Shown: piece after piece, positions 26,997 through 56,089 of the stretch
Numbering within the stretch: position 1 is the stretch's first letter
Layout of the letters: each line of letters begins with the position of its first letter
DNA from: Protoeuglena noctilucae
Taxonomy: Eukaryota
Assembly (NCBI GenBank): GCA_958009085.1
Contig: OY253682.1
Location: 62,001-126,000 of the forward strand
Length of the DNA: 64,000 bases
Direction of reading: 5' to 3'
Notes under the pieces: generated by a model
Databases searched by the model: none
Seen by the model: the letters and a program-made list of their open reading frames with translations, nothing else
What the model was told of the DNA's origin: nothing
Program-made: the position numbers and the translations under genes

Positions 26997-27067
26997 AGGG
27001 CTAACTACTAGTGACCCGCCAAGCTTGAACGATGATCCGAATACGCGTATTGCTGTCCACGCATCAA

Positions 27068-30763: not shown

Positions 30764-33700
30764 ATGCTGGGGTCGGTGATAGAGGCTTACCTGGCGAGGG
30801 TGGGTTTGGTGGACCACCATGCGCACAGGTGAGGGCTCACTGGAGCGCGGACGCGCCCCGCCGCCTCATCTGCCGCGGCCGCGCGGAGGAAGTGGGCCGC
30901 CCAGCGTGGTCGGTTCGGCGGGGAGGCCGCGCGGGCCTGAAGGGGGGATGGCCCGCGTGTTCGCCGCAGCCTTGCAACGGAGGAGGCGTGGGGGGACATT
31001 TCGCTCGAGTCTGTGATGACGGAGGCCAGAGGGTGAGCTACCTGGCGACGCGCCACTGTGACGAGAGAGCCCGCGTGTCGCGACCGTGCGCGGGCCGCGC
31101 CTCGCCACTCTCTCAGCCACGATCCGCCTCGGATGGCGTCCGGGGAGCCGCATGCGCCCACCTCCCGCTGCAGGACTGCGCTTTTGGTCCAGGCGTCGTC
31201 CGTTCCAGCACAGACGAGGGCGCGCAGGATTTTGCAATTGCTGTACGGCGTTCAGGACCCCGATGATCTTGACGACTGCCGCGCGCGTCTCGGGCTCGTC
31301 GGGACGGCGCGCAAGGTGGGGGGCACAGCGTGCAATCAATCGCCCATGCCACCTCCGCCGCCGCGTTTGCGGGCGCGCGCTCGCCCCGGCCGGCCGAGCA
31401 TTTGCATTTTCCCTTCTCCATCGCAGTGTTTTGAGGGTCAATCGGTCCGCGCGCTGTTCGTCGACGACGGCGTTCCGAGCCCAAAGCTCCGGCCGCTGTC
31501 CGCCGTGGCGTCGCTCCTGCCAGCCGGAATCCCCGTCCACCGCATCGTGCGGGCTGAGGACGTCCTCGAGCAGATCCTGACGCTCTGCAGAGCCGTGGTC
31601 GTCGCCCAGACGGACGCCGCCCAGCAGGCGCGCTCGCCCCCGGCCCCTCTCCCGATGCCGCCGATGGTGCCGCCCGTGCCGCCCCCTCCGCCCCCGCCCC
31701 CGCCCCGCAAGATCAGCTCGCACCCGACCGCCACCTTCGCGCACTCGAGCGTCGCCGCCACGATGGCCGCCGCCAACGCCGGGCGCTTCTGGTCCGAGCC
31801 GGGGGAGCTCCGCCCCGCTCTGTCGATGCAGAGCAGCGCCAGCGCCCGCGCCCTCACCACCCCCGCGTTCGCGGCCCACTCCCCCGCCTCGGCTCTCGCG
31901 CGCGCCCTGGGCCCCGCGTGCGTTGACGCCGTCTCCGCCCTCTGCGCCCACGCGGCGCTGCTCCCCAGCGGCGCCGTGTCGCTGCCCGTCACGGCTGCCA
32001 CCCTCACGCTGCTGGGGCAGGCCCTGGCGGCGGCGGTGGACGCCGCCGTCGACGCCGGGGCCGTCGCCGTGAAGCTCGCGACGGCCTACCGCGCCCCCAA
32101 GGGCCTGGCCGTGCGTCCCAGGGAAGAAGCCGAGGCGGCGGCCAGGGCATCCGATGATCTGCTGGTCGGCCCCGGGGAGATGAGGCTCGCGGGGCACCCC
32201 ATCCTGGAGTGGCTCGGTAAGAGACGAGGATTGGGTGGTGATCATTGTCACAGTTAACACCGTGTTGGCGGCCTAGTGGTGCGGTCCTTCGTGTAACAAC
32301 TGAGCGACCCTTCATACGCCACCCTTCACCCCCCCCCCCGCAGTGCACCAGGCCACCCCACCCATCCCACCCATCACTCACCCCCACCCTTGATACCCCC
32401 CTCCCATCGCAGTGTACCAGGCCATCGAGGCCGCCGCGTCGTTAAAGGTCCCCGTGCAGGTCCACACGGGCTTCGGCGACGTGGACCTGCGGCTGGACCA
32501 GTCCAACCCGCTGCTCTTCCTGGAGGCGATTCGATTCGCCGACCAACGGGGCGTGCCCCTGGTGCTCCTCCACACCTCGTATCCCTTCTGCCGGGAGGCG
32601 TCGTTCCTCTGCGCCAACTACGCCTGCATCCACCTCGACCTCTCCCTCGCCATCCCGCTCCTGTCGTGGGCGGGCATGACCGAGGCCGTCGCGCAGTGCA
32701 TGCACCTCGCGCCCATCTGGTGCGTGCCCGTGCGACTGGGCGTGCGGTGGTGCTCGTGCATTGGCATATGCGTGGTAGTGTGTGTGTGCATGCGGGTCAC
32801 GACAGGTGTGGGCGTGTGTGTGCATGCGGGTCATTGCGCTCGTGCGTGTGTACCCATGCTTGCTCCCCTTGCCCTCGCAGCAAGGTCATGATGTCCACAG
32901 ACGGCCACACCCTGCCCGAGATGTTCTTCCTGGCCATGGCGTGCGGGAGGCGCGTCCTGGCCGACGTGTTAGCAGACATGGTCGAGGGGTGAGGGGCGCA
33001 TACGTGTGTGTGTGCGTGCGTGTGTGCGTGATGGGGCATGTGGCAGACTGATGCTGAATGGCAGGGTCGAGGGGTGAGGGTGCATGTCAGACTGGGTGCA
33101 TCTGACCATTGGCCCACCCAGCTGGCCACCACCGCCATAGCCCAACTCTCTTCCCTCCCTTCTCCCCCAGGGGCGACCTGGGTGCCGAGCAGGCATTGCA
33201 GCTGGCGGCGGACGTGTTTGTCAACAACGCAGCCAGGCTGTACTCTGCCGCGCACCTGCAGCCGGCACCGACGCCCACCGACGACGACAGGGCTGCCGCG
33301 GGTGCGTGTTTGTGTACTGGCATCTGACTGTGCGTGCGTGTGTGACATGGCACCTGCCTTTCATTGTTACTCTCAAGGGGCACTCGCATGCACTTGGCAC
33401 CAACACAGCCGCGGTCTCTCGCCATCCCTCACAGTCACTATCCCCCCTTACTTCACCTGCAAGCATCTCGCTTCCTACAGCCATCCTTCACGACCACTAC
33501 CCCCCCTTCACCCAACACCAACTGCCCAGCATCTCCCGTTTCCTGCAGTGGCGCTGGCGTCAGAGTCCCGCGTCCGCCTGGCCACGCTGGTCCGTCCCGG
33601 CGACAGCGCGACGCTGCGGTCGATGCCCATGCGGTGGCCCGTGCCGTCCATTGACTCTGAGGTCGGGGGATCGGGGCAGGTGCTGATGGCCGAGCGGCAG

Positions 33701-36700
33701 ATGGGGCGCATGAGCGGGGTGCGGATGGTGCGGCTGGTGTGGTGAGTGGGGGAGAGGGGCAGATGGGTGCGGATGGCGTGTGGTGGTGTGGCGAGCGTGA
33801 AAAAGAGAGGCCGTGCTTGTTCACGCCACGCTCCCTCACCGTCGCCTCTCTGCACCTTTTTCACCCCACTCGCACCTCCACCCCTCACCCCCTCCATCTG
33901 ACCCCATCACCCCCTTAGTCGCGAACCCCCACGATGCAACCACCCTTTCTGGTACTCTATACGGATACTAACACTCGTACCCACTCACCAACGCACTCAC
34001 CCCCCTCCCAACCCCCCAGGTCCGACTCCGCGGGCGTCCGCCGCTGCCGCGTCGTCACCACGGCGTCCTTCCTCTCCTCCGCCGTCGCCTACGGCCTGGG
34101 CCTCACCGAGGGCTGCATGGGGATGCCCCACCACCGCGACGGCGTGGTGGCCGCCTCTGGTCTCTCGACAGTCGGAGAGGTGCGGCTCACCCCGGACGTC
34201 TCCACGATGCGGCAGCTGCCCTGGATGCCCTCCCACGCCGTCGCCCTCTGTGACCTGCGCCGTGATGGGAGGCCGTGGGAGTGCTGCCCACGCACCGCGC
34301 TCAAGGCGGCGCTGAGGTCCCTGCGCACGGCCCACGCGGGGCTGGAGGTGCTCGTGGGATCGGAACTGGAGTTCCAGCTGTTCAGGAGGGCCGGAGCGGG
34401 GGAGCGGGGGGTGGGGGCGGGCGGGGCGGGCGGGGCGGAGGGGGTGGAGGGGGCGGGTGGCAGCGGGGAGGCGTGGGTGCCGGTGGATTGGAACGGGTAC
34501 TGCAGCACGGCAGCCGTGGAGGTGAGGGGCGTGGGTGGTCGATGTTCACCCAAGCCATGCCGTGTCACCTCACTCCCTCTCTCTCACCCTCTCGTCGCAA
34601 CATCTAGTATGTATATACTATGCATCTCACCACACCCATTTCCTTCCCCTCCCCCTCCCCCCCCAGTCCCAAGCCCCCTTCCTCTTCACCCCATCCATCC
34701 AACCCCTCGCACCCTCCCCCCCAGTCGCAAGCCCCCTTCATCTACACCCTGCTACTATCAATCCAACCCATCTCCCCCCCCTTCCCCCCAGTCCCAAGCC
34801 CCCTTCCTGAACGCCGTGGCTGATGGTCTCAAGGAGGTGGGGGTGCCGGTGCTGCAGATGCACGCAGAGAGCGCCCCGGGGCAATTCGAGGTCGTGCTGG
34901 GGCACCTGCCGGCACTGGAAGGTGAGGGAGAGAGAGGCATGACATAGGCGGGTGGGGTGAGAGAGGAGCGGGGGCGGGGAGAGGGGCAGCTTGACGGCGC
35001 TCTGCACACCACCCCTCAACCACGCGCATCCACCCACCCCCCACACCTCCACCTAACCACACCCGCAGCCGCCGACGCCCTCATTCTGGCGCGCGAGGTC
35101 ATTGCCGGGTGCGCCAGTCAGCGCGGCATGCAGGCGTCGTTCCTGCCCAAGACAGCGCGCGAGTGGGCGGGCAACGCCTCCCACCTCCACCTCTCCCTGC
35201 AAAGGGGGGGGCAGCCGGTCATGGCGGGAGGGGCGCCCTGGGAGATACGGCCCGAGGCAGAACAGGTGGGGAGAATTTATATGTAAATATGTAATTGGAG
35301 TTCATGCGTGGTGTTGAGTATGTGTGGGGAGTGTGTGTGGTCATAGCAGTGACAGCGTAGTGCCCTGGGAGATGCGACCCGAGGCGGAGCAGGTGGGGAG
35401 TGTATGCGTGGGTAGTACATGGATGGTTGGGATAGATGTTGGGAGTGTGAGCGGTGTGAGCGTCCCTCACCTCACCCTCACCTCACCTCACCTCACCTCA
35501 CCTCATCTCACCTCATCTCTCCCCTCACCTCTCGCCCCTCATCTCATCTCCATTCACCTCATCTCAATCCCCCCTCACACCCCCTGCAGTTCTTCGCGGG
35601 CATCTTCCACCGCATCTCCTCACCTCACATCCATTCACCTCAACTTTTATCACCTCACCTCCTCACTCGTCTCATCTCATCTCATCTCCCCCGCAGTTCT
35701 TCGCCGGCATCTTCCACCGCATCCCCGCCCTCTCCGCATTCACGGCCCCTTCTGCTGCCAGCCGCGAGCGCGTCAAGCCGGGGGCGTGGGCGGGGGCCTA
35801 CCACATATGGGTGAGCATAGCGTGGCATGGCATGGCTGTGTGGGTCATAGCACATGGTGAATGAGCCTGCCACATATGGGTGAGTGGCATGATGGTGTGT
35901 GGTCAAACCATATCATAGTGAATGAGCCTACCACATATGGGTGAATGGCATGGCGTGGCATGGCATGACGTGTGGGGAATACCGCATAGCAAATGGCTTC
36001 CATAATTGGCAGAACAGCGCAGCAACCCTTGATGACTGTGACTCTCACCAACCCCACCCACTCCACCCCACCTCCCCCCCCCAGGGCTGGCAGAACAAGG
36101 AGGCGCCCCTGCGCGCGTGCGGCACGCCCCACAACCCCGCGGCACTCCGAGACTTCGAGTACAAGCTCAGCGACGCCACCGCCAACGCACACCTTGCCAT
36201 CGCGGCGCTGGTCGCCTGCGGGGCGGCGGGGCTGGCGGGCAGGGAGACCCTGCCGCCGCCCACCGCCTACGACCCCTCCGCGACCGACGGGGGAGCAAAC
36301 CCAAACCATAATTCGAATTTGGACCCAAACTCGCAGCAGTCGCCACAGCGGCTGCGGGTGCTGCCCCAGACGGCGGCGGAGGTGGAGGCGGCGCTGGTGG
36401 AGGGCGTGGGGGGGCGGACACTGCCGGCGGTGGTGGGGAGCGTGGTGGGGGAGCGGCTGGTGGGGGCGTACCTGGGTGAGTGGCATGGGGTGTTGGTGAG
36501 GGGTGGGCATGCGTGGGGTAATGGGCATATAGAGCGCTTGGCAGTCGCAGAGTCGCAGCGTGCATTGCCTCAGTTCTCAGCTCTCTCCACCCCAGAACAT
36601 CACCGATTGCCATTCCCAGTTCCCACCTGGCCCACGCACCCTCCCCTCCCCGCAGCCGTCAAGCGCGCCGAGTGGGCGGCCACGGAGGGTCTGCCCTTCG

Positions 36701-36735
36701 ATTCCCAGGTCCGCCGCTTCCTTTTCACCTTCTGA
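30764..36735 (+). CDS. NodGS/FluG-like fusion: N-terminal amidohydrolase plus C-terminal glutamine synthetase I-like domain; multi-exon
   Basis: LVDHHAH metal motif, RALFVDDG, PVQVHTGFGDVDLRLDQSNP, VLLHTSYPFCREA, KVMMSTDG. Then the GS-like domain: GEVRLTPD, GSELEFQL, HAESAPGQFEV, GNASHLHLSL, NKEAPLR, FEYKLSDATANAHL. Confidence 0.92.
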
Positions 36736-36971
36736 GACGCCCGACTGGGATGCAGCGTCATCGACATCGGACACCCCACATGATGTCACGGTTCACCCGG
36801 GCCCCAGCACCAAAAACACCGCGTTGTACCACTCGCACGACGCAACCATCATGTGACGCGACGCCCCACCAACGCACGTCATACACCGCAAAGCAACGCC
36901 CCAGCACCCGTCGCGCGGCCTCCCAGCACCGCCGCCCCGCCGGGCGCACCTCCCACGGCGCAAGCAACGCC

Positions 36972-37015
36972 CCAGCACAGCACAGCACAGCACAGCACAG
37001 CACAGCACAGCACAG
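36972..37015 (+). repeat. (CAGCA)n microsatellite (reverse complement of the GCTGT repeat), followed by degenerate CAGCACTG units to about 37130
   Basis: Tandem CAGCA units visible directly. Confidence 0.85.
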
Positions 37016-38155
37016 AGGCCCCGACATCACTGGGCACCGCAACAGCACTGTAGCAGTGCGTGCGCACCAACAGCACTGCGCTGCAACAGCACTGCAGCAA
37101 CAGCACTGCGCCCCAACAGCACGCCACTGCGCCGGTGCTGGTCCGCCCCGCATCCGCCGCACCCCCCCGGCTCTCCGCCCTTTGCTGGCTCCCCTCCCCC
37201 GTCAGTCGCTGCCGCGTGCACCGACGAGCTCTCTGCCCCAGCAGGTCCTGTTGCGTGCATCGATGGGGCCTCTGCGCCACCGGACCTCCCTCCCGACCAC
37301 CCCACTCCGCCCCTCGCTGCTGCCGAGCCGGCCCCGCGCACCGTAGCTTTGCACGTCCAACTCTCGAGCCATACCCTCTCCCGCGACCCTCGCCTGTTCC
37401 CAGTGCCCTGATCGTCGTTTGTCGTTTGTCGTTTGTCGTTCTAGCCATGTTAGCCGCCTAGCTCTCTCTTAGCCCTAGACTAGCTCCTTTAGCGCATGTT
37501 GTGTTCTGGTTGTGTTGCTAGCCCCACCCCGCCTGTGTCCGTTAGACCTAGCCTGGTAGATCCTAGCCGCGCCACCCTCGCCCTTTCCGCGCCCCTTTGT
37601 TTCCCGTCGTTGGCGCCAGCATCGTCACCACCCCTGCGCGTATGCGTTCCCTCCGCGCAGCAGAGGCGGCAGAGGTTGTCCTCGTACCGCCGCCCGCACG
37701 CGCACACCCCACCTTTCGCACCCTCGAGGTCGACTGCATTGGGCCTTTCTCCGCTCTCCGTGGGGCGAAGTGTCCCCGCGGAGTGGAATCCGAGCCCGCC
37801 ATTCGCCGCGGGCGTGATTTCAGTCTTTGAGGGCAGTTTCCGTGCTTCGTTGAACTGCTGCAATACACGGCTGCCACGCCGGCAGGGTTGCCGGCTGCAG
37901 CATGCCAGAAGCAAGGCCGCGCCAGCGTTCCAAAACGCATTGCGCGCGACGGAGATCGTCATCCGCGAGAAGCGAGCCACGTGACAGCATCGAAGCGTCG
38001 CGAGGCAGCAGAGAAAGGGTTTTTCTTGTGCACCCGCGCCTGCGCGTCTCAGTATTGGTTTCCTGGCGCGTCGAAGGGCTTCCCTTCGCTCGACTTGCAG
38101 CCCTGCAATCGAAACATCGAGTCGCGCCGGTCTTGCCTGGTTCCGGCCGGCGGGC

Positions 38156-39868
38156 ATGTCGCGCGCCCCAGCTGTCGTCCGCATCAAGCGAAAGCGGGAC
38201 GCAGCGGCCCCCGATGTGCTCCTCCTCGAGTATGAGTCGACCGCAAAGCAAGTGAGTCGAATTATGCATCGGTCAGGCCGGCGCTTCCCGCAAATGGACC
38301 TTGCGCTGGGGGCGGCGGCCGACTGTTACGCCTGCAGCCATGCGTGGGCTCTCTACACGAGGCTTTTGCCCGCCCCTGCATTTCATGCGAAAACGAGTCG
38401 TTATGAATCGATGCATGGCCGCCTCTCGCGCAGGATCGGCTGGCGGCAGGCCTCGCGAGCGTGAGCCTGGCGTCGGGCGGTGCCGTCCAGGCCTCCGCGC
38501 CGACGGGCACGTCGACGCGCAAGTTCCGGCGCCTGACGACCGTCGAGATGGACAGCTACCTGAGGGACGCCTCCGTGGCCGGTGGAGTCCTCGAGCAGGT
38601 GGCGCAGAGGCTGCGACCCAAAGCAGCGAGTGCGCCCGCCGACCCCCAGCCGGTTTCCGCGGAGCCCCGCACCGGAGACGCATCCATAACTCCTTCTCCT
38701 GCCGTTGACTCGGCCGACGGGGGCGATGCGCTGCTCGCCGCTTTCCCGTGCGTGGACGTGGAGATGGAGCGGGTGCTGGGGCGCGCGGGGCCGGGCGCGG
38801 AGGCCGAGGGGACCGCAGGATCTATTCCTGAGACGCACGATATGGGTAAGTTCGCAGGGATCCGGCGCGGCCGTGTCCGCAGCACCGGCGGGCGCCCAGA
38901 GCTCGTTTTGCACATGCGTTTGGAAAAAAGCGGCCGCTGCGGCCTCCGGATCCCGCGCCCGCCGCGCCTGCAGTTTACGACATCTATTGCGCGGACAGCG
39001 ACGAGGACGGCGTGGACTGGGAGGTCCCCGCGGGCGGCGCGTGGGTGCCAGTGTTGTCGTTGGGCGATGATGGGGAGTGGGTGTTGGAGCACGTGGGCGC
39101 GGGGGCGGATGAGGAAGACGTCGGGGCGGTGGACGACGAGGATTCGAACGCAGGTGGGATGAGGCGAAGTGTTCGCGTTTGTCTGTGCGTTTGTCCGTGT
39201 GCCTGTCTGGCGGAGCAACGCCTTAGCGCCCGTCGCTGATTGAGGGAAGCCATGGTAGCGGTGTCTGCTGATCATCGCAGAAGATCATTGGGCGAATGAC
39301 TATCCCGATGAGCCGGGGGAGTCCGATGACTCGCGGGGCCTGGATGATGAGGGGTCGCTGGATGACCGCATGGGGATGAGGGGGGGTGGGCATGCGGGGG
39401 GGAGGGGGTCGTCGTGGGAAGAGGAGGTGAGGGGAGAGGGGTGAAGGGATTGAAGGGATTGAGTAGTGAGGGGTGAGGGATGTGAGGGGATGTGAGGCGT
39501 GGCAAGGGGTGGTGAGGGGAGTGCAGATAGGGAGATAGGGTGGAGTGGGGTGCAGAGGAGTGGGGCGGGTGGTGTCGTGCCATGGCTCTGCACTGCCTGT
39601 GCCCCTTCTTTCTAATCCATCATCCCTGCGTTCGTCGCACTGTGAACCAACCCCGGTCCCTTCGCTTGCTCAACAGGGCTCCGATCTCAGCAGCGGCGAT
39701 GGCAGTGAGAGCGAGTTCCGATTCAGCAGGCACGGGGGCCTCGGGGGCGGAGGGGACAGCGTGGAGGGGGGGGCCGCTGGACGCGTTTTGAATGCCACGC
39801 TGACTGGTTTTGAATGTGGAAGTAACTGTGAGCTGACTGCGGCATGTTTCGATTCAATGCGGCAATGA
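38156..39868 (+). CDS. IWR1: IWR1 / DMS4(RDM4)-like RNA polymerase II nuclear import factor; multi-exon
   Basis: N-terminal VVRIKRKR, a VYDIY motif and the spliced acidic signature DDEDSNA/EDHWANDYPDE typical of Iwr1. Confidence 0.85.
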
Positions 39869-39943
39869 CCTATCATGGCTGGTTGGCGCCACTCATCATG
39901 GCGAGACGTGGCTCATGAGGGACATGACTCATATGCATATATA

Positions 39944-42900
39944 TCAACTATGGTCCACCCCCATGTCTATCTCCACGGCCAGCCACTTGTGGTCTGACAT
40001 GGAGTAGTCGTGGTTGCCCAACGCACGCGACACCACGCGCGCCGAACGCACCATCACCCAGTCCAGCTTGCCCCTGCGTGACGAGGGGGGCGCAGTGGGC
40101 ATAGTGTTATGATATGAGAAGATCTCTTATTATATCTACAATACTTGGACATAACATGACCCCTCACCTGAGCAGGTTGAGCCCCAACACGCCCTCCCCT
40201 CCCGCCCCTCTCTACCCCCCACCCCCCACGCCAACCCCTCACCTGAGCAGGTTGAGCCCGCACAGCCGCTTGCTCGACACCTCGAGCGTCACATCCCTCC
40301 TGGCATCAAAGGGGTCCCAGAACCCCGGATTGAGCGCGTCGCGGCACGTTTGCGCGTCCGCCCCCCACCGCCGCAGATGCCGGTTGATGGGTCTCCCGGT
40401 GCCGTCAGCTGCCAGGTCGCGAGGGTCGGTGTCGTAGAGGGGGCCCAGGGGCTGGCCTCTGTGAGTGGGGAGAGGGGGAGGGGAGAGGTGAGGAGGGGTG
40501 GTGAAGAGGGGTGGTGAGGGTCAATGTGGTAGAGGGGTCCCAATGGCTGGCCTCTGGGAGAGGGGAGAATGGTGAAGGGGAGGTGAAGGGGGGTGGTGAG
40601 GGTGTTGTTGGTTTGAATGGAGAGGGGTGTTAGTGTCACACACACACCCTCACCTCGACCGCCTCATCAGCAGCAGGCACCCCTCGAAGCACCCCCCCGC
40701 CACGTCCTTCACCACCTCCAGAGGCTCCTCCTCAAACCCCGACATCCCCGTCAATCCACGCCGACGCAAGTGCACCTGGGAAGGGGCAGACACCAGCCCC
40801 GCACCCACAGTGCCACTCGCACTGGACTGTGTGGCCCACAGCCCATCACCCTCCCCACGCGCACCACCACCCACACCCGACTGTGTACCCCACAGCCCCT
40901 CTCCCTCCCCGACCCCACCCACACCACCACCCGGCATGTGGGTTAACACTGTCCCCTCCCCCCACGCCGCGCTGTCTGACGCAGCACCGTTGCCATCCCC
41001 AAGTGCAGCCCCCAACAGCGGCTGATCCTCTCTCTCGCGACGCCGCTGTGCCTCGTCACGCCGCTTACGCCCCTCTCCCTCCTCTGCTTTCCCTGCTTGA
41101 GCGTCCCCACCCTCTCTCCCTTTCCCGTTCGCACCCTCGCCCTCGCCCTCACCCTCGCTGTCACTGTCGCTGATAGGGCAAACTCCGTACTTAGCCCACT
41201 TATCCACCGCACCCGCATTGCCACTACGCCCACCCACACCCGCACCCACACCCGCACCCGCACCCGCACCCTCGCCACCCCCCCTCGCCCACAGCGACGC
41301 CCAACGACGCGACACCCACCCACCCCACGACGCACCCTTGTTCTGCACATCCCCACCCGTCACATCCCCCTGCCCACCCCCACTCCACATCATTGCTCGC
41401 CGCACCCTCATCCCAGGTAAGCAGCCCCCTCTCGCCCTCTGCTGCCCAGCCACCTCTTCTAAAGCCATTCTCCTAGACCCAGGGGATAAGCAGGAGCCTT
41501 GGTGCAGGCGATAAAGGTTTGAATCCTGGGGCATGCTCTGCGCCCCGCTCAGGCCCCCACCCCACGCCGCACTCCCCCCCATGTGAGCCGTGAGACCACC
41601 TGCATCGTTACTGACAGCCCCGTTCGCAGCCCCGCTTGCCCCACCGCTGCCCTCAGCCCCACCGTTCGCCACACCCACCCCATCCCCATCCGCCCCCCAC
41701 CGTATCTCCTCTTCCCTCGCACTGGGCACCGCACTCCCAAACGCCCCCTCCCACGCACCCCACTGCCCCTCAGTCCCTTCCTTCCCCTCTCCCCGCCTCC
41801 CCCACTCCGCACCCTCCCCACCCCCACACTCGCCCCCCAACGCAGCATCATCCCCACTCTCCCCCACCCCAGCATCACCCCCACTCTCCCCTATGCCAAC
41901 TCCAGCATGAACGTCACCACCCACCCCCACGCCACCCCCCCGCGGGCTGTAATCCTCCGTCCGCCCCCTGCCCCCATCCCCATCCCCCGCACGCCCCGAC
42001 CCCTCCTCTGTCCCTGCCTCCGACCCCCCACTCCCACGCTTGGCAACCACCACAGCTCCTACTCCCAGCCTATCACGGCTTGAACGATCGTCACCATTGG
42101 CTCTTAGCGTATCAAAGCCAGGGCGACCGTCATCACCCACTCCCCGCCCACCACCCTCCCGCCCCACTCGCTCCTCAGTCCATTCGCCGTCTTGCGAACA
42201 TGGCTCGAGATTGGGTGGTGGCGCGGGGTGGCGGTGGTGGGACCAGTCGGGCGGCAGGGTGAGACTGGGAGGGGTGTCAATGGCGTGATCGATGTTTGAT
42301 GTTAATGATGCGTGGGGCTGGGACCAGGGCCAGCCAGGCGCTGTGTGAGACGGGGAGGAAGCGGGATGGGCTGACTTGGACGGGTTTGGTTGGGAAGAGG
42401 ACGGTCCGGCTGTGTCGGGTCTCAGTCCCTTGAGGCGGGGGTCGTGGGAGAAGGAAGAGTCCATCACTGCGGGGGTGGGTGAGGGGCAATGGTAAGAGTG
42501 GGAGTAGGTGCCAGCTAGGATGGTGGGAGCGCGTGAGGTGCGATAGGTGGGAGTGGCAGCATGACGCGGGCCCACACCTCCCTCAACCCATTCAGATCTC
42601 TTGCTAACTGTAGTTTTGCTCACCTGGCAGCACGTAGTGTGCCCACACTTCGGCCTCCATCCACCCGAAGCTTTTGTACCGCAAAGCATCGTTGGCGTAG
42701 ATGGGTGCCAGTCTCGCCAGTCCGTGCGCCATTGTGTTGAGGTCACCTGACAGGATTTGAACGTCGCGGCCCAGAGAGGACTGGGGGTGGGGGGGGCAAG
42801 GGGGAGGGGTGTGGTTGGGATGTGTTCAAAGGAGTGGTAAGGGAGGGATGAGGGTGGTGTGAGGGGTGGTGATGGAGGGGCGAGGGAGGGCATCAAATGC

Positions 42901-44265
42901 CAGCCATCAACCCATTAGCCACCCAACTCATTCAACATATACCCACTTGCCACCGACCCATTCAGCATACTATAACCACCCCCCCCCACTCACATGCCGC
43001 CTCGCGTCCGCAAAGACGTCCGCGAGCTGACTGAGGCGATCCAGCGCCCCGCAAAAGACCTCAAAGTGAGCCGAATACGCCACCAATGGCCCCGCATTGG
43101 GGATTGACAGGCAGGCGCCCAAAGTCACGCGGCCCCCCTTGCGTGGCTCCACCAATGGCAGCACGTGCCATTTGTTGGTCCAGTCGATCGGCTGAGCGCG
43201 GTGTATTACTGCCCAGGCCTGCGGGGGCGAGCAGGGTGAGGTGGGGTGGGGCTGTGTGGGGAGGTGGGCTGTGAGGTGGGGTGGAATGAATGTGGCTGTG
43301 TGGTGCGGTGCGGTGCATACTCTGTCACTGTCATACTAAGTTCTGCGTCATCATACTGGCTCCTGTCATCATTCTGACTAATCCCATCCTGGTCTCGCCT
43401 CGTCGATGTCGAACCGCGAGAGGATGGCGTTGCCGTGCACGCCCCCTCCCTGACTGCGGGCGCTGCGCCAGGAAGACCGGTACTCGTGGAACTCCACCAC
43501 CATCGCGTACGCGAGGCCCAGCGATCGCGCGATCTCCACGCCCGTGTCTGCGCGCGCCGTCGGGGAAAGCGCGGGGCGGTGGCTGCAGCTGGAAAGCAGG
43601 CAGTGCTGCATCGACCCGCGCGCGTCGCTTACCGACTGAGCCGCTGCGCTCGCATCCCCAGTCTATCTCCTGAAGGTACAGGACGTCGGCGTCCAGCAGA
43701 CGAAGCTCGTCGATGATTGCTGGGAGCTCGTAGCCTCGCTCGATGTTCCACTGCAAAGGGCGGTCGCTGCGCCTGTTCCGAGGGCCGTGCGGACGGCGGA
43801 TGGACCCCGGCGATAGATTAACATATAAACATATGAAAACCAGCTTCTCGGAGCCCACACCTGCACGATGCGCACGGGCGCGTGGGGATCCCTGCCCGCC
43901 AGTGCCGCCCTCGTCGACGACGACCGGAAGTCGGCCCGCACGATCTCGAAAGGCTCTGCGGCTCAGATGAAACACAAGGATCGCGTCGTCACTAGGGTCC
44001 CGCATCTGACCGCACAGGCGACGCGCTATAGGCCCGTGCCCTTCGAGGCGAGCCTCATGAGCGCGACGCGCGCTGAGCTGCGCTAGGAGGGCTCCAGCGC
44101 GACACAGCTCTCGACATGCTAATTGAGATGCGCATGACAACGCTTCCTGCTCCTCGCTCCCCCGTCTCGCGCTGAGCTGAGATCTCTTCGGTGGAATAAT
44201 GCCTGCCGCCCGCTCCAGCGCGCACCTGGGTACGGCCCTCCGACGAGGCCCTCTTCCGCAGCCAT
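39944..44265 (-). CDS. Endonuclease/exonuclease/phosphatase (EEP) family protein with large low-complexity insertion; multi-exon
   Basis: VRIVQ/WNIERG, ADVLYLQEIDWG, HGNAILSRF, YSAHFE, a GDxN-like motif near 42750, GKLDWVMV and SDHKWL are the ordered EEP catalytic motifs. Confidence 0.85.
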
Positions 44266-44705
44266 GGCAGGCGACAGCGGGGTCAGACCGCCCGCGCGGT
44301 CCAGTGGCTATCCCCCGCCAACCCTAACGTCACTTTTGCGTCACGATGGGGGACGCTTCGCATTTCAAAAGCGCGACTCGGAAACAAGCAACCACGATGG
44401 ATCCGTCAACGCCGATTCAGCTGAGCTGGAGCCTCAAGACGCGCCAGAGAGCAAACGAGCTGGCAGCGCCTGCGCCAGTCGCTCGACATGGGCGCCCTGT
44501 TGAATGCAAATGCCCCTGCCTTGGCACGAGACAGAATCTCATAGCCCGTTTCTGATAGTGCGCCCCTCCCCGACAGCGTAAGGGGGGCGGGGTTTGTGGC
44601 ACGTGGATGCGTTGCTGCCTGTAATGTCGCCATAGCGTCGTGATAAGCGGTTGCGATAGTGTCGACGCTTCTCGCACCGTCTGGGAGGGCAGCTGTGTTA
44701 AGGAC

Positions 44706-47700
44706 ATGGAGGCGACGTCGCGGGAGGGTGCCGCGGGTGCGGAGTGGCCCCTGTCGCTCTTTCTGAGGGAGTTCCCGGAGATTTTCAAAGAGCCCGATGC
44801 GGGCGTGGAAGGAGATGCGGCTGGGGGGTCCGAGAGCGCCGCGGAGGCGGCGCCCGCGAGTGCGGACGCTGCGAACGCGGCCGAGACAGATGGGGCGGTG
44901 GAAGAGGGGGAGCAGGGGCCCGCCGGGGAGGACGGATTGGAACGGCAGCGGAGCGCAGACCCCTACGGTTACAAGGCCCGGTTGAGGGCGATCGAGGAGG
45001 AGGTGAGCGGGGTTCAGAGCGTCAGGAGAACATCTGCTGGGGGCCGCGACGGAGGTGGGCCGAGGGAGCACCTGTGGGACGCGCGCCATCACCCAGTTGC
45101 TTGGAATGACTGAATCAAAGCGCGCAAACTACCGTTCGGCGCTTGTTTTCCACGGAGCTTCGAATCCCACGCTCGCTTTCTTTGCGGCTTTGCGGGCAGG
45201 GACTCTCACCGCACGAGAAGCCTCACACGCATTTGGGATTCCATCATGTCACGCTTGACGTGCGCGCTTTGCGATGCGGCCCCTCCCATCGCGCGCGGAG
45301 GCTTGGCCCAGGACGCTTCCGTCGTGGCCCCCGTTTGCAGTTCGCGAGCGCGGTCCAGGAGGCGGATAAGATGGAGCGCTATCTGCATGAGAAGTACAGG
45401 GCAGCGCGCGAGGCGGAGGCGTTGGAGGAGGCGGAGAACGACGCCAAGTTCACGCCCATGTGGCGCCAGGTGCGGCTCCCGCTGTGTCGCGGCTCGCTGG
45501 GGCTTCTAGACTTCTGCCGTCAGCACCAAAGCAGTATGCAATCGCTGCAACGACTGGCACCTTGACTCGATCTCCGGGCCCCCGCGATGCCGCAAACGCG
45601 CCCGCTTTCGCCGTCGCACAGACGGGCCTGCCCATGAAGCCCTCTCCGCTGGACCTGGACCCCAACTACATGGCGTCGCTGCAAATGCTCGACTCCAAGG
45701 CCCTCCTGGACCGCCTCGAGTCGCATAAGCGGCGCGAGCTGGGTGAGCAGGGGGTCGCATGCCTCCGCCCACCGCTCCCGCGCCGCGCGTCGGGGCCGGG
45801 CGCGGACCGCGCGCCTCGTGACACCTGCATCTCTTCGTGTATATGAATGCGCAATTACTCGGGGCCCGCAACTTGCCTCCCCACGGCCGTCACGCTTCAA
45901 TTCCCACCCGCATTTTGCCGTCGCCCTTTCCTGAGCCCCGCCCTCGCCCCTCGCCCGCAGCCCCGCCCCAGACCCACGAGTTTATGGAGCCCGAGGCGCG
46001 TCTGAATTACCTAAACACGACGGCCGCGTTCGACAGCTACAAGGCGGCGCAGGGTCCGAAAGCGACCAAGAGCCGACTGAGACGCACAATGGAGGCAACG
46101 TGGGCAGCAGAGCAGGCCATGACGGGGGCAGGGCCGCCGATGCGGGGCACGGGGACGCTCTTCGGCCTCACATCCACCACCAGGTGCGGGGCGCAAGTTG
46201 GGGGGTAGAAGGGCGCTGTTGATTGCACGCGTGCGCATGCGATGGGTGGCCACTCTGCAGCGACCCTCGCTGTCAGCCCCACTCACTCTCTGCTCCGCAC
46301 ACGCACTGCTCTGCACCCCACCCGCACCTTCGACACCGCTTGCCCGACACACTCCCACCCTCATCCCCACTGCTACCCCCACCCCCACCCCCCCTCACCC
46401 TACTACCCCCCAGATGGGCTGACCTGCCCCCCGAGGAGGTGGAGGGCAAGATGCGCGTGTCAGAGCAGCGTCGGCGGGAGATGATGGCCCACATGGACAA
46501 CGAGCAGATGGACCGGGAGATGGAAGTGCTAAAAAGAATGAACCAGAAGGTGGAGTTTCGCAGGAACCCCCGGTTCGTGGAGGGGGCGCAGGCGGGTCTG
46601 AGGGACGCGGAGGTGTTGGCCAAGGGGGGCCTGCCGGCATTGCAAAGGACGCTGGTCGAGGCCGGGCGCATCACGCGGGGAGGGGCGGGGGCGAATTCGA
46701 GCGCGAGCGCGAGCGCGAGCGCGGCGGCGAGGAAGCACGCCGTGGTGCGGACCCGGGCGGCCATGGGGACATCGCTGCGGCACCCGCTGGCCAGCGACCC
46801 GGTGAGTGTGGGGGGGGGGAAGGAGGGGGTTGGGTAGCAGAGACATGGGTAGGGTTATGAGGGGCTGCGGCACCCGCCGGCCAGTGACCCGGTGAGGGAC
46901 TGGGGGGATGGGTGGGTGAGAGGGACTGGGTGCACACTAGTGGGGGTATGGGTGGCGTGGCCAGTGCTCATGGCAGCGTCGATGTTGGCTGGCAGTCACT
47001 GCTGGCAACGATGCACTCACTCACTCATTCACTGCCACACCCCACCACCCACCACTCAACCCCACCCAACACCCCCCTCACTCACCCACCCCTCACCCAC
47101 ACCCACACCCCCCCCGTCTCCCCCTTCCCCCCCCAAAGGGCCCCGGCGTGGTGGCTGAGCCCGGCCACGTGGAGTTCCGCGAGTACCACCCCGGCGGTTA
47201 CTTCGAGGCAGAGGTGGCTCTGCGGAACGTGTCGGGGGTGCTGAGGCGCATACGCGTGATGCCCACGAGGACGCAGTACTTCCAGGGTGAGAGGGTGTGA
47301 GTGGGTGTGGGTGTTGTGCATATACCTTATGTCTTTGGGTCCACTCTCACCCCAAGTCTCTTCCCCAACAGGTTCATCCTGTCACCCACCCTGACACCCC
47401 CTCACCCCCCCCCCCAGTCCAATCGGTGGAGTTCCCCGACTCGCCCACCGGCGTCATCGCCCCGGGCTTGCACTGCCTGGTCCGGGTTCGATTCTCGCCG
47501 GACTCCCTAGCGGACTACGACGACGCTTTAGAGGTCACCACGGACGTCGGGCCCCTCTCCGTGCCCCTGCTCGGCCGCCGCCCGCCCCCCAGCCTCACAT
47601 TGCTAAGAGATATTGATTGCGGGGCAGCGGTGGTGGGCAACTGGCGCGTCATGCGCCTGCCCTTCGCCAACCTGGGCGGGGATGGCGCATTCCGTCTCGT

Positions 47701-50700
47701 GCCAAGCGGCCAGCCCTCCCGCCCCCCCTCGCGGCCTTCCTTAGACGGCTCGTCGGTGTCGCTGGAGAGCGCGGGGGCAAGGGATCAGATGCGCGTGGGT
47801 GACTTTGTGGTGTGGCCGACGTCGCTCGACGTCCCAGCTGGGGCAGAGGCGGCGCTGTGGGTGGCGTTCCGCCCCTCCCGCGCCGGCAAGTGCTCTGCCA
47901 AGTTCCGCATGGTCTGCGACAACTGCAACGTGCGGGTGTTTGCGCTCAAGGGGACCGGGGCCGACGTGGAGCTGTCGGTGTGCAGGGTCGACCAGCGCGT
48001 GCCCCTGGTGAGGGTGAAGAGGGGTGGTGTGCATGAGACAATGTGATGAGATTGTAGTGGTGGCTTGGGGTGGTTGTGGTGGATGAGACTGGTGTCGTAG
48101 AGGCTGTCGTGGGTGTGCCGCGTGGAGCAGCGCGTGCCGCTGGTGAGGGGGTGGAGACTAGCAGTGGTGTAGTGATGAAAGTGGAGGTGTGTAGTGGTTA
48201 CGGTTGATGCTGTATTGTGCTGAGATAGCTGTCATCAGTGTACCTTCGCCTGCCACTCCCCTCATCCCTTACATCACCACCCACACTCCACCACCCCTCC
48301 ATCACCCCACCCGTAACCACCCCAGCCCAATGCCCCCACCCTATCACCCCCCCCGCAGCCAACCGAGGTCGTCTCCCTGGACCCCTCCCACGCCGCCACC
48401 GTCCTCACCGCCGCATCCGGCGCCCCCCCGCCCCGCCCCCTCCCCCACCCCCACCAGGACCTCTGGTTCGACCACGTGACCCCCGGACACTCCCGCGTCC
48501 GCACTTTCTGCGTCATCAACCCCTCCCCGCTCCCCGTCCCATTCCAGTGGCACATCGCGCCCCTGCCGCCCGCCTCCGCCACCACCGCCCCGCTCCCCGC
48601 CGCCCTCGCCACCTCCCTCCCCTCCACCACCACCGCGTTCTCGGTTCGACCCACGGCGGGGACTCTCAAACCCAAATCCGTGGCGGAGTTCACCGTCACC
48701 TTCGCCCCGACGGCTCTGGTGGAGTCGCGGCAGCTGCTTGCGCTGTTCGCTGACCTCAGCACACGTGGCACCTGTGGGGAGGAGGCGACGGTGGAGCATC
48801 ACGCGGCTACAGCGCGGGTCGGTGCAGAGAGCGGGGCCGCGGAGGGGCACGGGGCGTATCGTGCTGTGCTGGCGGTGGGGGTGCAGGGGTTCGGTGCGCC
48901 AGTGGATGCGGCGGTGAGGCCCGGGCTGGTGTGCGTGCCGGGCACCCTGACGCCGGGGCAGCCGTGGTCCGCGGCGCTGTCGATCGAGAACCGAAGCCCC
49001 GCGGACGCGAAGTGGGAGGCGGAGGCGTCGGACGCGTTTCTGACGCTCGGCGATTCTGGCGGCGGTAACGCCAGTGTGACCGCCAGTGTGACCGCCAGTG
49101 GCACGGTGCCGGCCGGGGGTGCCTGCGCGCTGCCCATCACGGTGATCGCCCCCGCCGCGCTGGGCGATCGCTCGGCGCTGATTCGGGTGCGCGTGCGGCA
49201 CGGCCCGTCCCTTTGCGTGCCGGTCCGGTTCACCGTCGCCGCACCGCGTGTGATCGCATCCCAGCCCGGCCTCGACTTTGGTCTAGTCCAGACGCACCTC
49301 CCCGCGTCCCGCACCCTCACCCTCCGCAACCTCTCCGCCCACACCCCTGCGGTTTGGCGCATATCCGCACCGAGCGACGCCGTGGTCGACCCCTTAGCCG
49401 CCCGTTTACTGGCCGGGGCGACCCTAGACCACGCCAGGCGGTGCCTAGCGAACGAGTTATCGCAGTACTCGATGTTATCGGGGGCGTCTGGGATTGAGGG
49501 GTTGCAGAATGGGAGAGAGGGGGAGGGGTGGGGTGGCGTGCCGAGAGTGCGCATGGGAGGCATGGCGGTGCGTCCCAGCGCGTTATCGGAGACTCTACCC
49601 CCCGGCGGCGAACGTAATGTGGAAATCACGTGCGTTCCATGCGCCGAGGGGGCTTTGTCGGCTTCCTTAGAGGTGGCGGTGGAGGGGGGTGACGCGTTGC
49701 TAGTCCCCCTGTCATGTGACTCCTTGCAACCGAGGCTCAGGTTCCACGCGTCGGTGTTAGAAGTGGGGGATCTGTATGTGGGGGTACCAAAGGAGACGGA
49801 GCTGATCGTGAGCAACTGCACGCCCTTCCCGACGACGTTCGCCTTTGATGAGGCGCACCACGGGGACGCGGGTGAGGGGATGAGGAGGGTGGGTGCTTGT
49901 GTGCTTGTGTGCTTGTGTGGGTGTGTGTGAGGGGTGGTGGGGTGTGTGAGGGATAAGGGGCTGGGTACTGGGTAATGCGGGTCTTCCTGCCCATTCCCCA
50001 CGACACCTCTCATCTACGATGCACCACCCCCACCCTCAGACTGCGTTCGTTTCTCCATCTCCCCCCCCACCAAGCGCGTCCGAGCCAACGAGGTCATACG
50101 CGTGCGATTCTCACTACTACCTCTACGACCCGGCAGAGCAGTGGCGTACTTCACGTGCCGCATCGACGGGGCAGTCGATCCCATGGCCGTCAAGGTGCAG
50201 GCCACCGTGCATGGGCTGCAGGTGAGTTGGGTGCGGGTGGGGTGTGCGTGGGGTGGGTAGAGTGGGGTGGCGGGTGAAGGGGGGTGGGGGTGGGGGTGGT
50301 AGCGTGGGTGGGGGTGAGGTAGGTTTGGGGTGGGCTGCATGGTGAGGTTTGTGGCTGGGCAGTCCTCACATCTGCCTGTGCAAGCTTGGTCACTCCCCCA
50401 CTCACCACCACTCACCAACTCCTGACCACTTACACTCCATATCTAAACTATATATTCAAACTGATATTTAAATCCCCCCCCAGGTCTCCTACCGCCTGGA
50501 GCGCGTGCCCACCCCCCCTCTCACCCACTCACACTCACTTAGACATCACCACTCATTCAAGCTCATTCCAACATTCAAACTTACATCAACATTCAAATCT
50601 CCACCCCAGGTCTCCTACCGCCTGGAGCGCGTCCCCACCCCCGCAACCCTGGAGGCGGGCGAGGGGGCGTCGCGCGTCACGGCCGCCCTCACCGCCGCAC

Positions 50701-53700
50701 TCACCCAGGACTCCCTCACGTTAACTCGGCCCAACCGGTTCGGCAACGCTCTGAACAGCCTGGGTATGACCAACACGGTCAGGGGGTCGCTGGCGTCCGA
50801 TCTGCTGCTGGCCGAGATTCGCAGGGCCGCCGAGGCGGGGTTCCGGCCGGACGAGACCAGGAGGGTGAGTGGGGTTGGGGATAGTGAGGTTATTGATTGT
50901 TGATAGTTAATGATTAATGATGTGTGATATGGGTGGTGGTAGAGCTGGTGTGGTGTCGCTTGGTGGGTTCCGGCCGGACCAGACCAGGAGGGTGAGTGGG
51001 GGTTGGGTAGGGATAGTGTAGCATTGCTATAAGTGATATCTACTTCCTTCAGCACTCCCTCTCCCTCATCCCCACTCACCACTCACCACTCACCCCACCC
51101 CCCTCCCACTCCCCCCCAGGCCCTCCAGGCCCTTCGGCCCCCGACCGTCATCGCCGACCCCTCCCTCCCCAAGGGTGACTACGCCAGATTGGGCGTAGGA
51201 AACGCAGTGGCGCAGCCGCAGCGATACCGACTCGTCGCCACCAATCTGTCGGCCATCCCGACCCGGGTGGCCGTGGCGTTCGAAGAATTCGCTGCCCACG
51301 GCTCGCCTGCTCTGGACGCCCTGTTGAGGCCCAGAGCGGGGCAGGGGGGTGCGGGGGATAGGGGTGCGGGCGCTGGGAATGCCAAGCGGCAGGGGAACGG
51401 GGGCGGGGAGGCGGGGGCTGCGGCAGGGCGGGTGGGGGGTGACCGTGATGGTCATCATGCGCACAATGGGGAGTGGGGGGGTGAGGGGGAGATTGACAGA
51501 GGCGATCGCAGTCCCTCGTCGCCGGGGAGCCCGCGGACCGACGGGGCGGGCACGGCGTCCACTTCTGGCAGCCCCGTCACCAGACGCGCCCGTGCCAGAG
51601 ATGGCAGTGTCGGGGGCGTGCGCCCGGCGGGGGCGTCGCTGGCGGACGTGGCGACGGCGCAGGTGCTCGCGGGCCGCGCGAAGCAGCGCGTGAAAGAGAG
51701 GGCGGCGCACGGGGGGGCGCCGTTCCGACTGGGCGGTCCCGGCGGGGGCGCCCCTCACCCCACCAGCACCGCCACTGGTCACACCACCCACCACAGTGGC
51801 AGTAACAGTAACAGTATCGCAAAGCACGTTGTCACGAGCGGCGGGGTGGGATCGACGGCCTACCGCAGCCACACAGGGCAGCGTATGGTGGCGGAGCAGG
51901 GGGTGCACATGCAGGGCCGCCGGGCGTTGTCCCACAACAAGGGGCTGGCGTTTGTATTTGAGAAGCAAGTGCTGGACTTGCCCCCCATGGAGGAGGTGGC
52001 GTTTGAGTTCACAGCACATTGCAACATGCCGGGGGTGTACGCGGACGTGCTGCGGATGCGGGCGGTGGGGGTGGAGGACCAGAGCATCCCGGTGCAGGTG
52101 AGGGGAGATGAGAGATGGATGAGTGTGTGAGAGAGGGAGGGTGCAGGTGAGGGGTGGGGTGGGGTGCGGTGGGTGAATGTGTGTGAGAGAGAGGGGGTGC
52201 AGGTGAGGGAGGGCAGAGGTGGGGTGGGTTGCGGGGGTAACGAGGGTTGCTGGGTGGCGCAGCGTGGCATGACCTCACCTTAGCAACTCCCTCCCACTCC
52301 TTCTTACCACTTCAACCATCCCCACTCATCCTAACGCATGCACACTCACCCCCTCCTATTCTCTCAGATCGGCTTTGTGGGCTCTGCGCTGGTGATGCAC
52401 AAGCACCGCAGGCACACGCACGGCTACGCCTTGGAGGGGCAGGACACCGACGTGGCCATCCACGCGGGGGACGTGACGAGGAACACGCAGGCGAGTGGTA
52501 ATGTAATACTGACTACCATCTTTAATTAGTAATCATATAGTGACTGGTATTTGGTGAAAACGACGCGGCAGTCCACACACACAGTCACTCCCTCACTTAC
52601 TCCCTCACTCCCTTCCTCACTCCCTCCCTCACTCCCTCCAATCACTCATATACACTTCCCATCCCCATCCACAGATCTCCAAGCAGCTCTTCGTCACCAA
52701 CGTCTCCCCCTTCCCGGTCCGCCTGACCTGGGACTGCCGCGCGGTCATCCCCGATGCACTACTGGCCACGTCTATCTCTGAATATGGCGGAATAGTGGCG
52801 CAGAAGAGACTGGGGGAGGAGGGGTCGGGGGGGAGCGTCGGGTTCGGGAGGGGGGCGGTGGCCAAGCGGCAGCTGAGGGAGCCGGGGGAGAGGTGAGGGA
52901 GTAGGAGTGACGGCGATAGATGTGATGTAGAGTGACTGACTGATAGTAGCCGGGGATTGCTCCACTCCATCTCTTCTCTCACCCTCACTCAACACCCACT
53001 AACCCCCTATCGCCCCCCTGCAGCGTGATTGTGCGTGAGCCGTCGATCGGCCTCCGCCCCCTGCCCTCCAATGCGTCCAAGGTGGTGGTGGGGGAGGACG
53101 GGGAGGGGTTGCCGCCCAGGAGGGAGTCGTCGGACAGGGGTGAGATGGGTGGGGGTGGATGTGCATGTGTTTTGGGTGGGTTTGGGGGTGGATGTGAGTG
53201 CATGTGGGGGTGTGCATAGGGTGCATGTGAATGCACGTGAGGGTGGATGTGGGAGTAGGTGAGGGATAATGGGGGTGGTGGATGTGGGGTGGGCATCCTC
53301 TTTCCTTCACTGCACCCGTGCGCTCACCCTTCCCCTGTCACCCCATCCCTCCCCACCCCACTCACCCCTCCCCACCCCTCTCACCCCCACAACCACCCAT
53401 CCTCCCCTCCCCCCCCCCCAAGACCGCGTGACCTTCCTGGGCAGCCCCGGCAGCGACGTGTCAGAGTCATCGAGTGAGGGAGAGGGCAGTGACTCGGAGG
53501 GTAGCCAGGACAGCCAGGAGGCGTGGGAGACGTGGAGGAGGGAGAGGGAGATCGAGAGGAGGTGAGATTAGATATAGATTAGATATAGAGATAGATATAG
53601 AGAGCATGTGTGTGTGTGGGAGACGTGGAGGAGGGAGAGGGAGATCGAGAGGAGGTGAGTGGATGGGTGTGGGTGTGAAGATGGGTGTGGGTGTGGTTGT

Positions 53701-53714
53701 GGGTTATGGTGTGC

Positions 53715-53752
<38 letters not shown>

Positions 53753-55935: not shown

Positions 55936-56089
55936 TTCGAACCGGGGACGTGTTGGGGGATACGGGTATGGTCGGGGGAGCGCATGGTGGTTTGCGCAGT
56001 CGGGCACAGCGACATGGCGACATGTGGCGTGCTGTGATTGGTGGCGTCAATGTCTTTCACTCGCGTGCGATGGTAGACCTAGCTCTGTC

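Follow-up and report, generated by a model that had tools for sequence, protein, structure and literature searches.

In a 64,000-nucleotide (nt) stretch of DNA from Protoeuglena noctilucae (contig OY253682.1, positions 62,001 to 126,000; hereafter the window), 17 of the 87 modelled introns carry what we call echoes: second copies of an exon end, 9-39 nt long, that lie inside the intron together with a copied splice site. The 21 echoes sit at 18 junctions (12 donor, 6 acceptor) and are spread over six genes, mostly a DLEC1-like gene (6 of 18 introns) and a NodGS-type gene (5 of 13 introns). They are genomic, fixed in three DNA runs (X4, X6 and X7), and skipped by splicing in one RNA run (X9). 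Their exon parts have stayed close to the working exon, whereas the co-duplicated intron flanks differ strongly. We give roughly an even chance to the reading that most echoes were left behind by break repair that took a diverged version of the same locus (another allele, a mating-type partner or a hybrid parent) as its template.

Echoes were collected by ungapped extension from each junction against every position of the intron, and a match was kept if it scored at least 8 and held an intact GT or CAG/TAG. Their number exceeds chance. Among 7482 non-cognate exon/intron pairs, a score of at least 8 was reached in 0.7-0.8% and a score of at least 12 in at most 0.01%, while 17 of the 21 echoes score 12 or more. 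One candidate in intron 7 of an LRR gene, followed by GC, was left out as chance-like. Weaker copies fall below the threshold at 52141-52202 (two 7-nt donor echoes, DLEC1 exon 11) and 50332-50341 (10 nt, DLEC1 exon 9), and given these the count of 21 may be a floor. The three genes that dominate the analysis are as follows.

30764..36735, plus strand: NodGS-type gene (amidohydrolase plus glutamine synthetase), 14 exons, open 1070-amino-acid model, Pfam PF04909, PF16952 and PF00120; echoes in introns 4, 6, 9, 11 and 12
39940..43587, minus strand: gene that we take from its motifs to be EEP-like, partial model, open frame, RNA contigs on the gene; echoes in modelled introns 4 and 5
44706..55936, plus strand: DLEC1-like gene, 19 exons, open model of ~2280 amino acids, Ig-like DLEC1/CFAP domains; echoes in introns 5, 7, 9, 10, 15 and 18

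The echoes, with three of the true exon ends for comparison, are listed by position; bridging contigs are named by DNA run.

19562..19594, plus strand: kinesin gene intron 3 donor echo, 33 nt, V>I
21794..21912, plus strand: kinesin gene intron 7, donor echoes 21794-21804 (Q>stop) and 21902-21912 (identical), plus a third that is shorter and was not scored
32344..32355, plus strand: NodGS exon 5 acceptor echo, 12 nt, Y>H
33065..33073, plus strand: NodGS exon 6 donor echo, 9 nt, identical
34667..34683, plus strand: NodGS exon 10 acceptor echo 1 (true acceptor 34792), 17 nt, 0 differences
34725..34739, plus strand: NodGS exon 10 acceptor echo 2, 15 nt, 1 synonymous difference
35235..35265, plus strand: NodGS exon 11 true end (donor 35266), from the open model and RNA depth arithmetic
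35362..35392, plus strand: NodGS exon 11 donor echo, 31 nt, 4 third-position differences (3 synonymous, I>M); bridged by an X4 contig
35590..35616, plus strand: NodGS exon 12 acceptor echo (true acceptor 35697), 27 nt, 1 synonymous difference
35865..35879, plus strand: NodGS exon 12 donor echo 1 (true donor 35811), 15 nt, Y>C
35926..35940, plus strand: NodGS exon 12 donor echo 2, 15 nt, identical, outer boundary in common with echo 1
40168..40184, minus strand: donor echo of EEP exon 40243-40458, 17 nt, identical
40421..40458, minus strand: true start of EEP exon 40243-40458, as modelled
40516..40553, minus strand: acceptor echo of EEP exon 40243-40458, 38 nt, 3 synonymous and 3 non-synonymous differences (D>H, T>I); bridged by X4 and X7
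46864..46891, plus strand: DLEC1 exon 5 donor echo (true donor 46802), 28 nt, L>P and 1 synonymous difference
47977..48007, plus strand: DLEC1 exon 7 true end (donor 48008), as modelled
48112..48142, plus strand: DLEC1 exon 7 donor echo, 31 nt, 4 synonymous differences and D>E; bridged by X4 and X6
50484..50516, plus strand: DLEC1 exon 10 acceptor echo (true acceptor 50610), 33 nt, 1 synonymous difference; bridged by X4, X6 and X7
50965..50991, plus strand: DLEC1 exon 10 donor echo (true donor 50865), 27 nt, E>Q
53616..53654, plus strand: DLEC1 exon 15 donor echo, 39/39 identical; AT-rich spacer that does not resemble the intron following the echo
55416..55431, plus strand: DLEC1 exon 18 donor echo, 16 nt, identical
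56601..56619, minus strand: acceptor echo in a perfect 25-nt tandem unit, spacer just 6 nt, flank unscorable
63016..63031, minus strand: donor echo in an acyl-CoA synthetase intron, 16 nt, 1 synonymous difference

All 21 copies span the exon-intron border. None is a whole-exon duplication with both splice sites, as each holds 9-39 nt and one splice site. Local alignment found eight exon-like pieces in introns, and all eight are junction-anchored echoes. Introns with echoes are longer than the others (median 274 vs 168 nt), and in three exons both ends are echoed (permutation p=0.018; p=0.073 within genes). A transposon target-site duplication was considered and rejected: copy length ranges over 9-39 nt, and no element is common to the spacers.

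The two parts of an echo unit have diverged to very different degrees, a feature that an earlier, sequence-only reading of this DNA did not notice. Over the 20 echoes with a scorable flank, with the splice-site hexamer excluded and mismatch taken as a percentage of aligned columns, exon parts differ by 5.9% (~94% identical) and intron flanks by 22.5%, so that the unit does not behave as one copy of a single age. Ungapped similarity extends for a median of 7 nt on the intron side vs 17 nt on the exon side. In the five long echoes (27-39 nt, at most one difference each), 4 differences in 159 sites stand against 27% flank mismatch. We simulated same-age tandem duplication over three age ranges with 0-1 indel per substitution. 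Long near-identical echoes then have flanks ~6-7% mismatched, and 5-14% reach 16%. Flanks with less than 8% mismatch made up 23-54% of the simulated set vs 0 of 20 observed, and no young perfect tandem copy was found among echoes with a scorable flank. Nine of the 20 flanks beat 95% of unrelated introns, so many flanks are homologous, though old. Nearby tandem repeats that lie wholly within introns can keep their likeness, with 30/34 and 22/24 ungapped matches.

Echoes also obey a length ceiling. At all 18 junctions the exon-derived part is at most 39 nt, though units reach 135 nt and exons 660 nt. With breakpoints uniform in the unit, the joint chance of this is ~1e-6, a value that takes the observed maximum as its cut-off and ignores selection.

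The sequence-only reading had argued from codon positions. It held that echoes differ from the exon mostly at synonymous or third positions, that neutral decay should ignore codon frame, and that echoes are therefore captured fragments of a diverged allele, former exon ends or still-translated alternative segments. The exon/echo pairs it cited are all present, within a few bases of where it placed them and in the frames it gave, and the NodGS and DLEC1 models are open from start to stop with Pfam support. The DLEC1 echo at 48112-48142 holds five differences, four synonymous plus D>E. All four differences in the NodGS echo at 35362-35392 do fall at third positions, although ATA>ATG replaces I by M and is not synonymous. 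The three synonymous changes in the EEP echo at 40553-40516 are real (one is at a first position), but the homology continues into D>H and T>I, three non-synonymous bases that had been omitted. Replacements were rightly reported in some echoes; Y>C at 35865-35879 was missed.

Tabulated over 460 sites, the 26 differences comprise 16 at third, 7 at first and 3 at second positions; 15 are synonymous and 11 are not. The proportions of synonymous and non-synonymous sites that differ are pS 0.137 and pN 0.031 (pN/pS 0.23). Against a uniform expectation the excess is real, both for third positions (vs 1/3, p=0.003) and for synonymous changes (vs their share of sites, p=0.0002). Uniform is the wrong null, however, because the working exon also changes after copying and fixes mainly synonymous differences. 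The premise that neutral decay ignores codon frame is therefore incomplete: both copies change, and a neutral echo beside a constrained exon predicts 38% synonymous differences (43% with transition bias) with no diverged allele needed. Against this proper null the excess is only suggestive (p=0.036; p=0.093 with transition bias). Fourfold sites are ~85-90% G or C vs introns at ~60% GC, so synonymous exon change may be slower than neutral, which would shift the null to the side of the sequence-only reading. Stricter mismatch penalties keep the third-position p near 0.004; looser ends give p=0.16-0.7 against the proper null, and adding the LRR intron 7 candidate brings the synonymous share to 16/32. 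A signature of C-G swaps (6/15 synonymous, 3/11 non-synonymous differences) was dropped as not distinctive. Capture of a diverged allele is thus marginal on the codon tally alone and draws separate support from the higher divergence of the intron parts and the 39-nt ceiling. We confirm the observation in part and lend partial support to its interpretation, on grounds different from those it offered.

The exon/intron gap, the old homologous flanks, a pN/pS of 0.23, the 39-nt ceiling and the exons with echoes at both ends all fit copying from a homolog with close exons and far-diverged introns. From them we infer a diverged template, a repair pathway and which of the two copies is old. In the proposed sequence of events: (i) a break would fall in the exon, within ~40 nt of its end; (ii) the broken end would invade the homolog at the exon homology and copy the exon end, the splice site and 36-110 nt of the homolog's intron; (iii) re-annealing would fail, as the other end would offer less than 40 nt of match before the introns differ, and end-joining would follow; (iv) the incoming exon end would become the working end, and the resident end, with its old splice site, would be left behind in the intron, where it forms the echo. 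A break farther from the exon end would be expected to anneal in the normal way, and no echo would result. Annealing requires a certain length of homology, and the scheme can be likened to one-sided invasion. The scar would be near neutral since the spliceosome, as we propose, uses the outermost sites; it could then be fixed and decay. If so, an echo would be a displaced former exon end, which joins two of the three ideas in the sequence-only reading. Some events were probably copied from the same chromosome, such as the perfect 25-nt unit at 56601 and the boundary-sharing echoes at 35865 and 35926. Nothing in the window supports a mating-type location.

Taken further, exon-intron borders could act as genome-wide homology cliffs. 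Recombination between strongly diverged haplotypes would end uncleanly there, exon ends would be routinely replaced, and fossils of displaced alleles would lie in thousands of introns. We advance this extension tentatively, as less likely than not.

Several points weigh against copying from a diverged homolog. The donor haplotype was not found: X4, X6 and X7 hold no second allele at 85% likeness, and neither protein nor metagenome searches returned a close relative. The model presumes, rather than demonstrates, sex or a second haplotype in the host. The simulation leaves out any higher substitution rate in low-complexity intron DNA, and selection against longer decoys might account for the 39-nt ceiling. 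The codon signal is concentrated: 10 of the 15 synonymous differences fall in three echoes (35362, 40553 and 48112), the remaining 18 echoes have 5/11 (not significant), and the 12 echoes at junctions that the sequence-only reading did not cite have 1/5. A lenient mismatch penalty lowers the third-position share to 18/38 (p=0.05), where the alignment probably runs into unrelated flank. Finally, two distant DLEC1 homologs (32-40% identity; protein search with the DLEC1 exon) have D at the D>E site, so that the change arose on the echo's side, which decay fits equally. The corresponding protein search with NodGS exon 11 gave 0 of 84 candidates at E<=0.001. A metagenome scan with the DLEC1 exon gave three distant loci with best segments at 29-53% identity; two of these DLEC1-like loci, L001 and L003, were tried as outgroups and, being AT-rich, were of no use.

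The strongest competitor is local duplication on the same chromosome, by patch or microhomology repair or by slippage, followed by faster intron turnover or homogenisation of the exon part. We hold it to be a substantial possibility, if short of an even chance. Junction-spanning copies would be the ones that are both neutral and visible, and the synonymous lean would come from the working exon. The G-rich and C-rich low-complexity intron DNA would turn over fast, or short-range template switching would re-homogenise the exon part. The codon tally is compatible with this (p=0.04-0.09, or 0.16-0.7 with looser ends), intron-only tandem repeats of similar size are present, one perfect 25-nt unit exists (56601), and repeated echoes at one junction have common boundaries. 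Tandem or near-tandem insertions of 10-1000 bp made by repair are described for rice (as summarised in part of PMC7407515). Some spacers hold AT-rich filler (up to 69% AT), which local repair would also account for and which is suggestive at most of nucleotides added at the join. Plain local duplication nonetheless predicts the near-identical flanks in young copies that the 20 observed flanks lack and the simulations produce. By our derivation, continuous homogenisation predicts a pN/pS near 1, which is rejected (p=0.0002), and local duplication by itself does not predict the 39-nt ceiling.

Selection at the RNA level could also keep echoes as decoy or helper splice sites, conserving the exon-like part while the intron drifts. 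The far better preservation of exon-like parts than of flanks and the lack of unanchored exon pieces in introns agree with this. Retention of GT or AG, on the other hand, was built into the definition of an echo, the idea gives no reason for codon-aware differences, and 70 of the 87 introns have no echo; we consider it unlikely.

Splicing was inferred from RNA contig ends and from depth arithmetic, in which contig depth times exon length is compared with X9 bin depths; this covers a single run in which rare isoforms are invisible. Canonical splicing predicts depths that agree with those observed for NodGS (predicted/observed 6.52/6.48 and 2.27/2.31, where use of the echoes would give 7.86 or 3.43-4.41), for DLEC1 (0.44/0.44 and 1.89/1.89) and for EEP (0.73/0.71 and, less cleanly, 6.13/6.44). 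At the introns covered, which hold 10 echoes, the outermost splice site is used and the echo copies are silent. In-frame use of both copies in mRNA, as in tandem or mutually exclusive exon duplication, was not seen in X9. For 18 of the 21 echoes, among them the three most diverged, splicing at the echo site would shift the frame or introduce a stop. An open in-frame insert is possible for the other three (19562, 50484 and 55416), none of them among the most diverged. It is therefore very improbable that echoes are still-translated alternative exon ends, as the sequence-only reading had allowed, even though contigs drop rare isoforms and 50484, the one open-frame echo within 34001-54000, has no RNA cover.

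Runs from two studies (P1 and P2) hold 0.95-1.00 of the sequence words of 30701-40700; runs X13-X23 share next to no words and were left out. The stretch 34001-54000 contains 13 echoes. Twelve are spanned by X4 contigs (1.5-12 kb) with 0 other letters, and for the thirteenth a 109-nt contig covers the join of spacer and echo. At least 7 of the 13 are bridged by X6 and at least 2 by X7, among the pieces listed (30 of 1744). No second allele or echo-type exonic allele at 85% likeness occurs in X4, X6 or X7, although contigs drop rare variants, and so the idea that echo variants segregate as exonic alleles found no support in any of the three. Echo copy number does not vary in these runs, which are themselves nearly monomorphic overall. 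The sole other letter listed across the three runs in 20 kb is 51847 T>G, in one X7 contig at a depth below 5; diversity across samples is very low. An assembly artefact that wrote two haplotypes in tandem, the mis-join that the sequence-only reading had itself named as its refutation, would suit a possible marine metagenome origin of the window DNA and the allele-like, codon-type differences, yet it is largely refuted, and the least probable explanation, because contigs of both studies carry the tandem form unchanged.

If repair from a diverged homolog is true, echoes can be counted across the genome as a mark of cryptic recombination, and they reveal a mechanism that lengthens introns and swaps exon ends while the protein stays unchanged. 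They would also supply natural pairs of near-identical competing splice sites for studying how a green-algal spliceosome chooses the outermost one. If exon-intron borders are homology cliffs, echoes record earlier sex or hybridisation in a lineage that appears clonal in today's samples, along with recombination-driven intron growth and junction turnover. Should the echoes be plain local duplications, they would still show that exon-like sequence survives longer within introns than the low-complexity DNA around it, and the warning remains that uniformity over codon positions is the wrong null for comparing an exon with its copy.

The window is 65% GC eukaryotic DNA with spliceosomal introns. 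Fifteen gene models or part-models were built, with 87 introns (73 GT-AG, 14 GC-AG; median 180 nt) whose junctions, GC-AG included, rest on open frames rather than on RNA. The 14 of 87 introns that start with GC are a high share by comparison with other eukaryotes. Introns are G-rich in their 5' half and C-rich in their 3' half (skew +0.44/-0.51 in echo introns, +0.27/-0.36 in others), and fourfold sites in the echo-rich genes are 55% C after acceptors and 59% G before donors; both biases could reflect pairing across introns. Pfam backs the NodGS, DLEC1-like, kinesin and AMP-binding frames (8 of 10 exon translations matched) and gave no match for the two EEP-like exons tested. The EEP-like gene holds a 563-codon open Gly-rich low-complexity stretch (40776-42466, minus strand), with an RNA contig over its first part (42206-42466).

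Model frames are open, apart from one in-frame TAG at 62709-62711 (minus strand) in an otherwise open exon of the long-chain acyl-CoA synthetase gene, which may stem from a sequence error, from a null allele or from a small intron that was missed. The LRR/coiled-coil gene shifts frame at 12500-12690 (minus strand), where either an intron was missed or an indel lies; the LRR gene's tail was modelled separately from the rest. Small genes near 4400-5500, 23700-27000 and 61080-61500 are omitted from the models. An unanchored scan of the whole window found no extra echo-like junction pairs at these unmodelled genes, bar a longer duplication at 25387-26330. Its copies (25387-25700 and 25994-26330) are ~610-655 nt apart and roughly 85% identical, include intron-like parts, and lie upstream of a reading frame that is presumably Nudix-like. 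A homeodomain gene at 27290-29460 (minus strand) has sequence that we take to be TALE-like. This homeodomain class is tied to the zygote programme in green algae.

The host appears to be a pedinophyte. The nearest proteins to the glycine decarboxylase in a protein search are chlorophyte, and in a quick tree of 34 rows it groups with the single Pedinophyceae protein included (SH-aLRT 99), which suggests a placement at class level from one gene. In a sequenced pedinophyte, GC content is 70% and codon bias is strong (10.1101/2021.10.04.463119). In the main text of that preprint, 'intron' appears once, in connection with chloroplasts; its supplements, which may be relevant, lie outside this coverage.

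Duplicated splice junctions are known as single oddities, whereas a single window here has them in 17 of its 87 modelled introns, at donors as well as at acceptors. The comparisons that follow draw on parts of the papers cited. The portions covered of an intron review (PMC3488318) and of two repair reviews (PMC7407515, PMC4888836) do not describe the pattern, and no algal case was found in the literature searched, which left most subscription papers outside its coverage. Echoes are neither exon duplication nor intron birth, and they fail the one-age test for a plain tandem copy. A contrasting plain tandem, judged by eye, is seen at an unrelated AT-rich DLEC1-like locus (L001:1785-1975), where an acceptor is repeated three times in ~61-nt units with near-identical intron parts.

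The nearest relatives in form are junction duplications in F7 and FGG. In human F7 intron 7, a 37-bp variable number of tandem repeats (VNTR) spans the exon 7/intron 7 boundary and the most upstream donor is used (PMC1557585). As in the window, an exon end and its donor are repeated within the intron and the downstream copies are silent. The F7 case is one many-copy array with identical pseudo-sites, unlike the algal echoes, which have one to three copies at 18 junctions, coding-type differences and strongly diverged intron parts. FGG offers a single duplication of an exon-intron junction including the donor (PMC9052919); it is fresh, longer and disease-causing, with aberrant transcripts, whereas the algal echoes are short, fixed and skipped. 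Segmental duplication can also create introns by supplying splice signals in one step (PMC3265369). There a new intron is born, while in the alga existing introns are lengthened and the protein is unchanged.

On the side of mechanism, gene conversion in mammalian cells is completed by microhomology joining or by adding nucleotides once the homology is exhausted (PMC5104497). In both settings template copying would pass beyond the homology of the second end. The mammalian reporters involve kilobase tracts and the sister chromatid; the algal tracts are 50-135 nt, would have been copied from a diverged homolog, and would meet the edge of homology at the exon/intron border. The rice insertions of Vaughn and Bennetzen (as summarised in PMC7407515) resemble echoes in size range, local origin and filler sequence. 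They differ in that same-chromosome copies start identical, so that no exon/intron divergence gap is expected. Other algae offer parallels that are not evidence on this host: in Mamiellales, haploid stages dominate and sex is rare (PMC13308817), and gene conversion between volvocine mating-type gametologs shows that green algae can copy between diverged haplotypes (PMC4856071). In the part of the volvocine study covered, no junction duplications are described, and the window shows no sign of a mating-type region; the likeness lies in the copying itself, between haplotypes that have diverged.

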